Source: Eledone cirrhosa
Lineage: Eukaryota
Length of the DNA: 64,000 nt
Direction: 5' to 3'
Assembly (NCBI GenBank): GCA_964016885.1
Contig: OZ024744.1
Location: 84,506,001-84,570,000 of the forward strand
This document shows positions 971 through 63,162 of the stretch, piece by piece (position 1 is the first letter of the stretch; each line of letters begins with the position of its first letter). The position numbers and the translations under genes are program-made. The notes under the pieces were generated by a model that was not told the origin of the DNA, did not search any database, and worked only from the letters and a program-made list of their open reading frames with translations.

Positions 971-2061
971 AACACATACACTTAGACATACACATACATA
1001 CATATCCACATTTCCGATATAAACACACATAATACACATACATACACTATAAACCTACAACGCCCAATAACCACACATACACGTTTACACTGATCTACAC
1101 ACACACACACACACACATACATGCTATGACTGATACACACAAACCCACATGAACATACTCTAAACACCACATATACCATTAACACAAACACACACACAAA
1201 CACACACACACACGTCTAACTCACGCATATATACACACACACACATAACAATTCTTTCGACACTCGCTCATAGACAGGCGCACACCTCGAGTAGACGTGG
1301 TTCCCCTTACTCACCGTACTCACACACCTGCATTACTGATAGTCCAGGAAATTCTCTGCCATTACAACTATATGCACACCCTCATACAGAAAAACATACA
1401 TCCCTACTTTCCTTTGCACATCACTCCCTCCTGATGATCCCCTATTTTTTTCATAACCTCTTCTCTCTCCTAACTTCTCCTCCACTTTCATTTTGCAAAC
1501 CGAAATAACCCGGAATGCATACCCGACTCTGCAAGAACATCGCCTGAGCCGGGACAGGATGACCCGGATTCCACTGACTTTCGGTCAAATGCATTACACC
1601 TATAGGACAATATACCTCAATATATTGCACGTTTATTTCATACATCTGTATATACGTATGTGTATATATAGATATATTATATATATGTGTGTGTGTGTAG
1701 ATATATGTGTGTGTTTATATGTATGTGTATGGTTATATTGTTTATATATGTGCATGCTTATAACAAGATGCATCATTTCATGTATGACCCATTCTATGAC
1801 CCATTGTGTATCTTTATATGACTTTGTGTATATATCCTATTTGTGTATATATATATATATATATATATGTAGATAAATCTACCAAGAGTTTACGGTAGTG
1901 TCCAATCCGTATGAAGAACTCAATGTATTCCGGATATCATGGAAAGAAGAGATGTAATGAAAATCCACTTTCGGTGAAAGATAAACGGTATACAGAGTCA
2001 AGATAAAATATTAAACAAATAATGAACAAACAATTCCTTATATTAAACAAAAAAAGTTCAC

Positions 2062-2206
2062 TATTTAACGATCGTTTCTAGGGTATATATGTGTTATAAT
2101 TGGTATGCATATTTAACAGATCTATGTACAAAATTATACAAAATTATACAAATTATCAAGATTAAATATACATACCTAACTCATATATACGCCGTCTTCA
2201 GAAATA
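2062..2206 (-). ncRNA. Type I hammerhead ribozyme motif with ~115-nt stem II (PLE1 3' end)
   Basis: Minus strand tattt-CTGAAGA-[gtatatatg/catatatac; ggtatgtatatttaa/ttaaatatgcatacc]-GAAAC-gatc-GTT-aaata; stem III palindrome AACGATCGTT. Confidence 0.75.
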
Positions 2207-5200
2207 ATGAAGTATATTTATTGATAATAACAACAATTCAAAATATCAGTTCAAAATTGACCAATGAAAACACAAAGGGTTAAAAGCAGTTTGGTGTGTG
2301 TATATACATGTAAAAAGCCTTACACATATTTTACAATAATGTGTGTATAATTTGTATGTGCATACTAAAAAGATGGATGCAAACACAAAATTTCAAGGTT
2401 AATATCTCTGTAAGCTTAATGCGCTGATAAGATACGCAATGATACTTATGGAGTCAAGCATATAAATATATTTTTTTCATACTCACACATATCAGTATAA
2501 TCACACATACATGTGCGTATATGCATAAATATACACATAACCACGAACATACAAACACACACACTCCCCCACTCACATTTATATATGTGGATATAAAATC
2601 ATAAGCAAATAGAAATTAAGTCACTCACATAAAACACTGGCACACACATTTCAAGATCAAGATACAGAAATTAGGTGGGAGGGGGGGGGGGAGGGGTCAG
2701 TATTAGATTGTCAGACCAGACTGCCTAATATAAATGTATCTATAAATTAAGAAAAATAAAAAAATAAAAACAATAAAATATAATAAATATAATATAATGT
2801 ACATACACATACAGATATACATACACATACATACATGTACGCGCACATAGAGATATCTACACATACATACATACACACATACCTATACAGTCATACACAC
2901 ACATACATTTACACGAACATACACATACACATATAAAAAGATATAAATACACACACACACACGCGCAACACATACCCACATACACATATATATATATATA
3001 TATATATATATATATATATATACACACACACATAGACTCATATATATATATATACATATACATATATATATATATAAACATATATATCCACACACTCATA
3101 CCACCATAAATACACATACAAACACCCACATGTATATATATATATATATATATATATCCACATACACACACGTACACATATATATATATATATATATATA
3201 TACACATACATATATATATATACACACACACATAAAAAACAGACATGCACATATATATATATATATATATATATATATTTCATTACTCTTATATATACAC
3301 ATAGTATATATACATACACAACCTCACTTATACACATATACACATAAGTTATATTACAATAATAATAAAGAATAATATATATATATATTTATATATACAT
3401 ATACATATATACATATATATATATATATACATACATACATACACATACATACATACACACAAATATATACATACATAAATACACGCATACGAATAAAGAC
3501 ATATATTCACACATAGACACCTATATACATATATATATATATATATATATATATCTATATATATATATATATACATATATATATATATATATATATATAC
3601 ACATACACACACACACACACATACAGACACACATACACACTCACATATATATATATATATATGTGTATGTGAGTGTGCGCAAATACACATATATATACAC
3701 ACACATATACAAACACACACAAACACATACATATGCATACGTGCACACACACACACATATATCACATAGATACGAAGATAAACATATAAATAGAGAGACA
3801 TACAAATATATACAGAACCCATATACACATACATACAAACACGCATATACATATACATACATATATACACATATATATATTCCTATATACAAGCATACAC
3901 ATACATACACATATATACATATACATACACATATACATACCACACATTCACATACACATACATATATAATACATATATATACATATATATACATACATAT
4001 GTATGTACAATCATATATACACACTCAATCTTACATTCATATTTACATGCTCATATATGTATTTTTATATTTAGAAATAAATACCAAAACCTATATAGAC
4101 ACCCACCTACACATATATTCATACATATACGCTTACAAAAACAGATGATAATAGTATGGGGGAAAGGGGGGGGTTGGAGAAGGGGATCAAAGTAAATATA
4201 TGTTTCAAGAAACATATAATATTTTCCGTATCTTAATTCAATGTATGTTCTTACATATTTTCAGTGCTAGGAAATACGAAATCTATGCATCTCAAAATAA
4301 AAAAGTATACCATTAATCATATGTTAACTAAACCAAAGATAGTCAACATATTGATTTCCAAGGTGTAAATTAGTTAGGTTTATAATATTTGAAGCAGAAT
4401 TATGAAGTCAAACAGTAGTAGATTATTAATTACATTATAACTAAATTAAATTTAATAACGTTATGGTATCAATATTAGGAGATGAATTTAGTAATAGGGA
4501 AAAGAAACCCAAATAAAAATAAAATAAAGTATTACATCGGTAGTAGCATATAAATTATATGTTAACTAAATTAAAAATTATATATTTATTTCAATAGTAT
4601 ATGTTAATTAGTATATGTTAATTAGGTATACAATACATAAAGCAGATATTGTATTTCATCAATAGCATAATATAATTATATGCAAATAAAAATCAAAATT
4701 AATACGCATACATATACATATACATACACATACACATATATATACACATATACACACATATATATATATATATATACATATATATACACATATATACATA
4801 TATACTCACATAAACATACATACAGATACACATACACAACACACACATATACATATACATATAGATATACATATCTTTTTCAAAAAATTGCACAGAATAT
4901 ATTAACTAGGTATATATCCAAAACACTTCCCATTCTATGATTACATGACATTCTGCAATTCGTCTGTACAAGGATACTAATTTTAAGCAAATTAAAATTA
5001 AAGTTTTAGGTTGATTAAAACTAAAACCAAATAATAAATATATTTCCAAAATGTATATTAATTAGGTCTATAATACTAAAAATTCTTTCTCCGTCATTGG
5101 ATACATGATATTATTTTGTTATATTTTATCTGTAAAAGAATTATAATAAAAAAAATTATAATAAAAGGTTAAAATAAATTAAAATTAATCTATAAATTAA

Positions 5201-5345
5201 ATTACTGAGTATATATTAGTAATATTTAAAGGTTTTTCAAAATTTATGATTACATAATATTTTCTCATCTGTAATAAAATATTAATTAAATTAAATTTAT
5301 AGGTTAACTAACATTTAAATTAAATTAAATTCTAGAATAATGTTA

Positions 5346-61900: not shown

Positions 61901-62067
61901 ACCTAACTAAGGAAATTTCTTGTTGAGTCAAACAACGCCGTACGTTAAAACTATCCAGAGTACAGAGTACTCACAACCTCTAATTGTATTACCTTAAACC
62001 TCGTCATCATATATATATATATATATATATATATATATATATATATATATATATATATATATATATA

Positions 62068-62209
62068 TAGAAGTGGTTACACAACCGGTTGTTCACCATA
62101 CTGAGAACAATTGTTTCACCTTCCTGTTGTGTAACCACTTCTACCTAACTCGTCCCATGGACTGAGTGCTCTACCACTACGGATATTACCTTCCAGTGTT
62201 CTACCACTA
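62068..62209. mobile_element. Smallest asymmetric foldback: 18-bp arms plus 66-bp tail between (TA)n
   Basis: tagaagtggttacacaac / gttgtgtaaccacttcta; tail has GAGTGCTC. Confidence 0.7.
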
Positions 62210-62593
62210 TATATATATATATATATGTATATATGTATATATATATATGTATATATATATATATATATATATATATATATATATATATATATATATATAT
62301 ATATAAATATATATATATATATGTATATATATATATATATATATATATATATATATATATATATATATATATATATATATATATATATATATATGTATAT
62401 ATATATATATATATATATATATATATATATATATATATATATATATATATATATATATATATATATATATATGTATATATATATATATATATATATATAT
62501 ATATATATATATATATATATATATATATATATATATATATATATATATATATATATATATATATATTTCTTATCTTAATATATATATATATAT
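62210..62593. repeat. Long interrupted (TA)n tract
   Basis: Direct. Confidence 0.95.
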
Positions 62594-63162
62594 ATATTAA
62601 GATAAGCAGAACAAGTAAAATTCAACCAATTTTTCAAAGTAAATTAAAAAATATAATATAAATATTTACCTCTTCTAATGGCCCTTACTGATCAGTTTCG
62701 CTTTGTAAAACCCCAGAAATCCGATGGATATCTGATGGAAAACCAAAGCTCATCAGAGAAGCATTTTCCTTTCCTAGGGCTAAACGACCCAGGAACGATA
62801 AAATATATGACCTCCTGCCAGCTAATACAGGTCTGAAAGGTCGTAAAAGTGACCCGTATGTAAACCGGACCGAAGTAAAAGCGGGAAACCACAGACTTGC
62901 TGTCTATAATTACTACTAAAAAAATCGGATTTCTGGGGTTTTACAAAGCGAAACTGATCAGTAAGGGCCATTAGAAGAGGTAAATATTTATATTGTATTT
63001 TTTTTATTTATTTTGAAAAATTGGTTGAACTTTACTTGTTCTGCTTATCTTAATATTAAAGTTCTGGTATATCAAATTAATACCATTGAACAACCTTGAA
63101 TCATAGACAACCTATGTATTTCTAAGGGTACCTAGTATCCTTGGACATATTAACTTCATTCA
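62594..63162. mobile_element. Asymmetric foldback: arms 62594-62725 / 62924-63056 plus ~105-bp tail; full hammerhead at 62682-62760 (-)
   Basis: ttct-CTGATGA-gctttg...caaagc-GAAAC-tgatca-GTA-aggg; (TA)n on both flanks. Confidence 0.82.

Follow-up and report, generated by a model that had tools for sequence, protein, structure and literature searches.

The Hydra clade of Penelope-like elements (PLEs), as described by Craig et al. 2021 (PMC8557442), carries a C-terminal GIY-YIG endonuclease and is marked by RWK/R, DKT and CxCx5C motifs together with CxxC and CxH, while CCHH is lacking; Hydra-1_Obim of Octopus bimaculoides is listed in the supplement of that study with a preference for (TA)n. 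Metazoan non-LTR (long terminal repeat) retrozymes, which are non-coding hammerhead repeats, were proposed in 2020 to be dependants of PLEs (Cervera and de la Pena, PMC7229834), and according to Li, Clavereau and Pollet 2026 (bioRxiv 10.64898/2026.07.22.740005) they both derive from and depend on them. Biochemically, a purified Poseidon PLE has been shown to cut and extend both DNA strands and to start synthesis inside its RNA at two sites, and it is predicted to be a dimer (PMC11167929). The return of retrozymes to DNA has been proposed to occur by a PLE enzyme acting on circular RNA, a step for which no demonstration was found in the available parts of this literature, to which all statements on published systems given here refer. 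The one-end tails and inverted arms of PLE insertions are likewise only partly explained so far. Here, we analyzed a 64,000-nt stretch of the Eledone cirrhosa genome (assembly GCA_964016885.1, contig OZ024744.1, positions 84,506,001 to 84,570,000; hereafter the window), in which coding Hydra-type PLEs and short hammerhead elements lie interspersed. Probably, the window is a fairly ordinary sample of a genome flooded with Hydra-type PLEs, their truncated 3' ends and retrozymes of 400-630 bp, all sharing one insertion scar and likely copied by the Hydra enzyme.

The shared scar is the real link between the coding elements (PLE-A to PLE-D) and the non-coding ones (short groups bear F numbers). 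A first-pass annotation, made from the sequence alone, had proposed a common (TA)n-targeted signature with tandem and inverted arms; both kinds of arms are present, and the signature proved more exact than claimed. A (TA)n tract lies within 300 nt downstream of 28 of the 36 full-span hammerhead motifs in the window, compared to 11 of 36 upstream and a chance rate of 26% at random positions (p about 1e-10 for the downstream excess, with copies that are not independent), in agreement with the earlier statement that most motifs sit in (TA)n. In most of the 18 families listed, coding and non-coding alike, two modal 3' ends occur downstream of the predicted ribozyme cleavage site. These are found about 50 and 150 nt past the site in F3, 45 and 135 nt in F9 and F12, 25 and 110 nt in PLE-B, 60 and 200 nt in PLE-A, 67 and 185 nt in F2, and 88 and 190 nt in F15; F4, F16 and F18 show a single clear mode. 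Wherever a longer copy is known, the element's own continuation past the end consists of two to five alternating T/A letters (12 of 12 ends; summed match 43, expected 13.65, P = 1.5e-5). Of 76 two-armed insertions, 73 have a long end on one arm and a short end on the other (coding 47/50, non-coding tandem 10/10, unclassified 16/16); if ends were chosen independently, no more than half would be expected to do so. This count draws on end signatures derived from the same loci, however, and includes related copies that are not independent and a few that may be duplicated loci. A first version of the count was spoiled by TA-like or empty signatures and was repeated with a complexity filter, which removed most PLE-A cases. 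The 5' truncation, in turn, is variable across insertions.

The four PLE families with reverse transcriptase (RT) and GIY-YIG domains that had been claimed for the window are present, PLE-A in two copies. The full PLE-A unit (1866-7939, minus strand, period 6074 bp) contains a stop-free 813-aa RT+GIY-YIG open reading frame (ORF; 5349-7787), a 3' untranslated region (UTR) of 3.5 kb and a hammerhead (2057-2211), and its long 3' end runs into (TA)n. Upstream follows a 5'-truncated, 99.9% identical tandem copy (7940-13474, minus; hammerhead 8131-8285) and then an inverted arm consisting of 3' UTR (13475-15499, plus; hammerhead 15294-15448), the short 3' end of which also runs into (TA)n. Genome-wide, all 55 scored matches to PLE-A (out of 117,574 first-look candidates) were stop-free at 99-100% identity, giving at least 55 intact ORFs, so that the family is very young. 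At G000:C2:170426791-170441343, three intact PLE-A ORFs lie in tandem at a spacing of about 6.06 kb, and several head-to-head pairs of intact PLE-A ORFs occur elsewhere in the genome. A distant relative of the PLE-A 3' end with a decayed hammerhead is located at 51733-52060 (minus). PLE-B (29794-33342, minus) has a frameshift-broken Hydra-type ORF (30931-32995), a hammerhead (29898-29951) with a U4A core that is fixed in the family, an inverted arm with a hammerhead at 33268-33318 (plus) and a further fragment at 33389-33512 (minus). PLE-C (33999-39112, minus) consists of a decayed Hydra-type ORF (37776-39112), a 3' UTR of 3.8 kb and a distant hammerhead (34030-34089), which was assigned to it because loci L401 and L402 jointly cover the region from ORF to hammerhead colinearly. 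PLE-D (56635-59846, plus) carries a 5'-truncated Hydra-type ORF (57520-58764), a U3-A8 hammerhead (59643-59768) and an inverted arm (56635-57593) with its own hammerhead; a relative of it forms a minimal two-armed insertion with two hammerhead halves at 20782-20986. The long 3' UTRs of PLE-A (2800-4900) and PLE-C (35700-37580) are largely microsatellite-like, so that simple repeats are dispersed along with these elements, among them (TA)n tracts that can serve as targets of subsequent insertions.

The predicted proteins show the Hydra-clade motifs of Craig et al. (PMC8557442). RWR and DKT are found in PLE-A and PLE-B (the aligned PLE-C and PLE-D frames start past this region), the CxCx5Cx5C linker occurs in all four families and in the ORF linked to F14, CxxC and CxH near the end are complete in PLE-A and decayed in the other families, and CCHH is absent from the endonuclease as judged by eye on the alignment. 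The RT aspartates D252, D348 and D349 as well as Y707, G709 and R718 are invariant among 74 aligned proteins. Local Pfam and PDB scans did not recognize the RT; Atlas neighbors carry HTH_animal, GIY-YIG and RVT_1. The coding elements also have the hammerhead in the 3' repeat and the insertion into (TA)n that characterize the clade. The Hydra affinity suggested by the first-pass annotation thus holds for the coding elements by the linker and the other motifs; that Hydra, rather than another (TA)n-targeting PLE, serves as the helper of the retrozymes is what we infer. As in the published clade, hammerheads, the (TA)n target, partial tandems, an inverted 5' copy and a tail that is often confined to one end are found here. 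Published Hydra elements are, however, generally below 3 kb with few families outside cnidarians (PMC8557442), whereas the units described here reach 5-6 kb by means of their long 3' UTRs, at least eight coding families touch a single window and one of them has at least 55 intact ORFs.

Hammerheads were identified with a type I descriptor that allows a stem II of up to 150 nt and C3-G8 or U3-A8 cores and penalizes an altered U4. At a score of at least 8, the window contains 22 motifs, compared to a mean of 0.31 (maximum 2) in 200 local dinucleotide shuffles, a comparison that the first-pass annotation had itself put forward as decisive, and to one motif in the reversed sequence. A stricter version had returned 13 rows, several of them spurious, while overlooking families in which the base of stem II is mismatched. 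Decayed copies were added by family hidden Markov models (HMMs), which yielded 45 rows; one, a self-complementary stem matched on the opposite strand, was discarded, leaving 44 traces in 21 model groups that we divided into 36 full-span motifs and eight halves. The earlier estimate of about 33 motifs from about 17 families is therefore roughly right (36 full-span motifs, about 20 groups), although just 22 of the 36 pass the descriptor. Rfam hammerhead models gave no match in the window at the gathering score, none among the best 150 of 317 rows at E<=10, none in five further loci and none in one 181-nt stretch at E<=10. The identification hence rests on the descriptor and on compensatory changes among subfamilies that were collected without it, and the motifs, whose topology and core fit by descriptor, appear to be variants that the Rfam models miss. 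Rfam microRNA matches in the window were set aside as inverted arms and (TA)n.

For the descriptor-independent comparison, homologs were gathered by nhmmer and base pairs were counted. Stem covariation, also named beforehand as a test, is present in two groups. Among the 43 sequences of the F12 group, one stem II pair is read as A-T 20 times and as G-C 19 times. The 45 sequences of the F8 group have two stem II pairs that alternate between G-C and A-T (33/9 and 30/9) and one stem I pair that alternates between A-T and T-A (25/9) and is broken in 10. These changes likely reflect a few subfamily events rather than many independent ones. Core positions are 97-99% conserved compared to 89-96% at unpaired flanks. 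In 22 of 52 clusters, stem III is perfectly palindromic, which would suit the dimer mode described for the minimal PLE hammerheads (Cervera and de la Pena 2014, PMC4209133). With these, the motifs described here share the type I topology, the palindromic stem III and the U3-A8 variant, and as in that study many solo copies stem from truncated PLEs and opposite-strand pairs lie 100-700 bp apart. At the base of stem II, U-U, C-A or A-A mismatches are frequent, and family-wide changes at position 4 occur at 29898, 33268 and 33407 (PLE-B) and at 61689 (F14). By eye, two further hammerhead-like cores were noticed at 27745-27845 and 16050-16160, both unscored by descriptor and HMMs.

To separate truncated PLE ends from independent units, 12 short groups were traced upstream, ten of them in 30 loci each from genome searches, F12 and F19 in loci already collected; F5, F11 and three minor groups fall outside this set. 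The searches returned 1,263-4,038 first-look candidates for nine groups and 57 for F9, figures that are not copy numbers. Four groups, F3, F9, F12 and F14, are 5'-truncated ends of coding Hydra elements, not passengers, as other copies have an ORF 0.5-1.5 kb upstream. A Hydra-type endonuclease ORF lies upstream of F3 in 3 of 30 loci, of F14 in 9 of 30 and of F9 in 2 of 30, where colinearity extends over 1.5 kb at 90%, and a close subfamily of F12 flanks such an ORF in locus L061. The first-pass view of more than a dozen non-coding elements in their own right was in this respect too generous. It was correct in that true non-coding tandem hammerhead units exist, namely F2 (548 bp), F4 (about 625 bp), F10 (about 425 bp), F15 (about 485 bp) and F19 (about 590 bp), none of which contains an ATG-initiated ORF of more than 75 aa. 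In 30 loci each, the upstream continuation of F2, F4, F10 and F15 is their own unit and not an ORF. F18 is probably a sixth non-coding tandem unit of about 400-440 bp, while F8 and F16 showed neither ORF nor tandem unit within 1.5 kb (30 loci each); F16 ends often in (CA)n as well as in (TA)n. Like metazoan non-LTR retrozymes (PMC7229834), the tandem units are non-coding and low in GC, bear one type I hammerhead each, are dispersed as monomers to multimers and coexist with PLEs. They differ in unit length (425-625 bp compared to about 150-450 bp) and in hammerheads with long stem II inserts and a loopless palindromic or long stem III; the available text of that study mentions neither a (TA)n target nor inverted arms or two-site ends, and the words 'microsatellite' and 'inverted' do not occur in it.

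Within the window, the non-coding units are represented by an F2 array (17831-19740, plus) of one partial, two full and one partial unit with three full hammerheads and one half, whose short inverted arm (17831-17978) leaves the long end on the left and the short end on the right, both in (TA)n; by an F4 unit (22017-22709, minus; hammerhead 22271-22365) and an F4 tail fragment with a 3' hammerhead half (20410-20700, plus); by F19 (28734-29740, plus) with two hammerheads of U3-A8 core; by two-armed F10 (50574-51680; hammerheads 50914-50990, minus, and 51411-51487, plus); by two-armed F15 (62594-63161; hammerhead 62677-62765, minus, and a half at 62925-62986, plus); and by the probable unit F18 (50192-50466, minus; hammerhead 50343-50419). 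Truncated coding ends comprise two-armed insertions of F3 (19775-20336; hammerheads 19829-19887, minus, and 20110-20204, plus and decayed), F9 (40675-41058; 40805-40875, minus, and 40943-41013, plus) and F12 (55086-55533; 55128-55206, minus, and 55331-55409, plus), together with two 3' ends of F14, an old one with the 5' hammerhead half alone (16569-17500, plus) and one with a hammerhead at 61689-61801 (60785-62008, plus) that shows the U4C change of 19 of 21 family hits.

Are the tandem units copied from circles? F2 is dispersed; its full-length matches are 94-98% identical, its arrays contain as many as five full units, and an inverted arm is present at 15 of 23 distinct loci. Together with its tandem junction, F2 occurs in contigs of three runs, including a second organism. 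In one young F19 insertion, six aligned segments from its two arms are free of variable sites. The two F19 units of the window differ by 0.2% from each other compared to 0.8-1.9% from five other close loci, and share four substitutions and four single-base gaps that locus L069 lacks. An array of 11 near-identical 310-bp hammerhead units that ends in (TA)n was observed at positions 245-3387 of locus L063; it has two variable sites. Such homogeneous young arrays and variants shared within a locus are genomic hints of a putative circular template, although a homogeneous parent array or local duplication would equally give identical F19 units. As a possible scar of RNA editing, an excess of A-to-G over T-to-C on the RNA strand was found in four of five tandem families (p = 0.008 and 0.04 in two of them) and was seen neither in F2 nor in five other families, with copies that share descent. 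Every 3' end is located past the predicted cleavage site, which the copies then traverse in the upstream direction; from this anatomy it follows that the template cannot be a cleaved linear monomer copied once.

If correct, these findings may be joined into the following sequence. An RT-GIY-YIG protein, probably a dimer, would cut both strands of (TA)n, and each freed DNA end would anneal to one or the other of two UA-rich internal RNA sites and prime reverse transcription. Synthesis would pass back through the hammerhead site, with an uncleaved multimer or a re-ligated circle as template, and the two cDNAs, one of them often very short, would be joined head to head. The enzyme would act in trans on retrozyme RNAs bearing the same two-site signal, and tandem arrays would arise when it travels round a circular unit several times. 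Much of this resembles the Poseidon PLE of Anolis (Frangieh et al. 2024, PMC11167929), for which an AT-rich target, two internal start sites that give rise to the tail, cutting and extension of both strands and a template left uncleaved at the hammerhead were established in vitro. The two systems differ in that the Poseidon start sites are reported as non-homologous to the cut DNA, while the 12 ends tested here have a TA match of 2-5 nt, and in that a tail of 30-40 bp is given for Penelope, while the two ends described here lie roughly 70-170 nt apart. Nearly as likely as not is the fullest version, in which an active Hydra PLE dimer primes both strands of cut (TA)n in a telomerase-like manner, through short base-pairing at two fixed sites of one RNA, and rolls round hammerhead-made circles, at least half a dozen unrelated retrozyme families have converged on its signal, and 0.2-0.5 million hammerheads result, a number that would far exceed the published counts considered here; the intact helper gene would then be available for reconstitution.

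Several observations weigh against the Hydra enzyme copying circular retrozyme RNAs. Most families lack the G10.1-C11.1 pair, which is termed highly conserved in PMC4209133, and two have an altered U4 (A in 21 of 21 hits of PLE-B, C in 19 of 21 of F14); these departures from the canonical core would speak against strong self-cleavage, and eight of nine Xenopus retrozyme dimers showed no cleavage in vitro (Li et al., bioRxiv 10.64898/2026.07.22.740005). With Poseidon in vitro, synthesis starts at a site that lacks homology to the cut DNA, and mutation of the hammerhead leaves insertion unimpaired (PMC11167929). In the older arrays of F2 and F4, the divergence among units of one locus is about the same as that between loci. 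One F2 array (L004/L030, G000:C5:87.93 Mb) shows an ABAB phase with 6 differences between A units, 3 between B units and 18 between A and B. This phase suggests a later DNA duplication of two units; it was set aside as proof of a two-unit circle, since such a duplication explains it equally well. Eight units compared with nine coding 3' regions, a small comparison, gave no homology beyond low-complexity stretches. Finally, the helper search used Hydra-like proteins alone, leaving a Naiad or Neptune helper outside its reach, and cephalopod Naiads also prefer (TA)n (PMC8557442).

Three other explanations draw on these points. The most serious of them, though unlikely, is that long read-through transcripts of existing arrays, left uncleaved, serve the Hydra enzyme as template, with no circle and with hammerheads that are weak or dispensable for insertion. 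It departs from the sequence of events proposed above only in the template and in the passes round a circle, and it would fit the unaffected insertion of the Poseidon hammerhead mutants (PMC11167929), the non-canonical cores and stem II closures common in the families of this genome, the need of synthesis to cross the cleavage site and the identical units also expected from a homogeneous parent array. Against it stand a core that is more conserved than its flanks, the compensatory stem changes among subfamilies, and the circles formed by coral, mussel and axolotl retrozymes (PMC7229834). A different (TA)n-targeting clade, Naiad or Neptune, as the mover of the retrozymes appears rather improbable. 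The shared scar would then reflect a mechanism common to PLEs, in line with one-end tails, inversions and microsatellite bias across PLE clades, with the (TA)n preference listed for cephalopod Naiads (both PMC8557442) and with units that are not tied to Hydra ends by sequence homology. This explanation was weakly tested, as the protein queries are unable to detect other clades; yet each coding element of the window that is linked to a hammerhead family is Hydra-type, one of them very young and intact, and Craig et al. (PMC8557442) call cephalopod Naiads long-inactive remnants without canonical hammerheads. Very improbable, in our view, is that all short elements are decayed or truncated coding PLE ends and that their arrays expanded locally through unequal crossing-over in the manner of satellites. 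Four of 12 traced groups are indeed PLE ends, one F2 array has an ABAB phase, variants common to neighboring units are also expected from local duplication, and local amplification of pLTRs was proposed by Li et al. (bioRxiv 10.64898/2026.07.22.740005); but in the 30 loci of each, F2, F4, F10 and F15 continue into their own unit and not into an ORF, and arrays are dispersed and variably 5'-truncated, with tandem units in both arms and fixed outer ends.

Returning to copying by the Hydra enzyme under a shared scar, its parts are all of known kinds, and the mechanistic detail is new and testable. Hydra (TA)n targeting and tails (PMC8557442) and the link between PLEs and retrozymes (PMC7229834; bioRxiv 10.64898/2026.07.22.740005) are already published. 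The shared scar was not found in the literature, judged from partial texts without preprint supplements; likewise, no work on PLE ends in retrozymes was found, and the accessible text of an Octopus vulgaris repeat paper (PMC13282606) contains neither 'hammerhead' nor 'retrozyme'. Li et al. 2026 also report Hydra PLEs and retrozymes together, in a coral, and base the link on co-occurrence and Xenopus pLTR homology, not on insertion ends, whereas here the scar is shared and pLTR homology was absent from the small comparison. Added here are the comparison of coding and non-coding elements under one rule, the assignment of a third of the traced short groups to PLE ends, the observation that ends coincide with a TA match, and a young candidate helper with intact ORFs. 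Coding and non-coding families share a near-absolute rule, by which a long end is combined with a short one and both coincide with a TA match. Given the candidate helper ORF and several passenger RNAs, this rule determines which protein, templates and target an in vitro test would use and where synthesis should start.

The window itself is fairly ordinary. Motif density was estimated at a score of at least 10 in 85 arbitrary 10-kb stretches of large contigs of the 3.0-Gb assembly, with hand-chosen coordinates. One stretch, L076, is an A/T-rich satellite that mimics the descriptor (22 false hits at >=8, 12 at >=10) and was dropped. The remaining 84 contain 91 motifs, 11 of them from one array, and controls over all 85 stretches gave 3 (reversed) and about 2 (shuffled). 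This corresponds to 1.08 motifs per 10 kb (bootstrap 0.70-1.54), or about one per 9 kb, and by extrapolation to 0.21-0.46 million hammerhead motifs, which would place the hammerhead among the most frequent structured RNA motifs of this genome. Published counts, obtained with other descriptors, are 2,000-9,000 per genome for PLE hammerheads (PMC4209133, where the G10.1-C11.1 pair often absent here is the norm), over 6,000 in coral, about 5,000 in mussel and up to 120,000 copies in axolotl (PMC7229834), and 4,000-9,000 in coelacanth and Xenopus. At 3.3 motifs per 10 kb, the window exceeds the sample mean about 3-fold (P about 0.02 by resampling), and neither a density particular to this window nor the idea of a special hotspot was retained. 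It is rich in (TA)n at 35% GC, motif counts track (TA)n density (rho 0.50), and the 140 kb beside it contain 20 motifs at a score of at least 8. As all families fill (TA)n genome-wide, the side-by-side position of helper and passengers, which the first-pass annotation had taken as the link between them, is no evidence for it.

The remaining hammerhead elements of the window are F16 (16197-16512, minus), 5'-truncated and with a minimal hammerhead (4-nt stem III) of decayed core, and its second copy (49267-49590, plus); F8 (39372-39850, minus; hammerhead 39414-39477) and an F8-like element with a decayed hammerhead (21563-21789, minus; related copy 27095-27312, plus); F5 (27989-28146, plus; U4C in this copy) and its half copy (41313-41400, minus); and a further group with a decayed hammerhead (63223-63311, plus), just beyond the span annotated before, and another half at 62084-62123 (minus). 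F11 forms two inverted arms (52298-54500; hammerheads 52367-52448, minus, and 54366-54448, plus), between which a DNA-transposon-like element was later inserted. The latter (52543-54198) has short terminal inverted repeats and a 334-aa frame without Pfam hit (52895-53899) and is probably a DNA transposon. A GC-rich degenerate tandem repeat (24578-26460) shows periods of 81-174 bp and long open frames without Pfam hits. A decayed LINE-like (long interspersed nuclear element) fragment at 60348-60780 gave a weak endonuclease/exonuclease/phosphatase Pfam hit at 60348-60698 only, and by their motifs we take 39930-40410, 42300-43700, 44370-46200 and 46900-48600 to be LINE-like as well. Two copies of a SINE-like (short interspersed nuclear element) repeat, 86% identical, lie at 43736-43902 and 61335-61499 and presumably resemble a repeat of octopus genomes.

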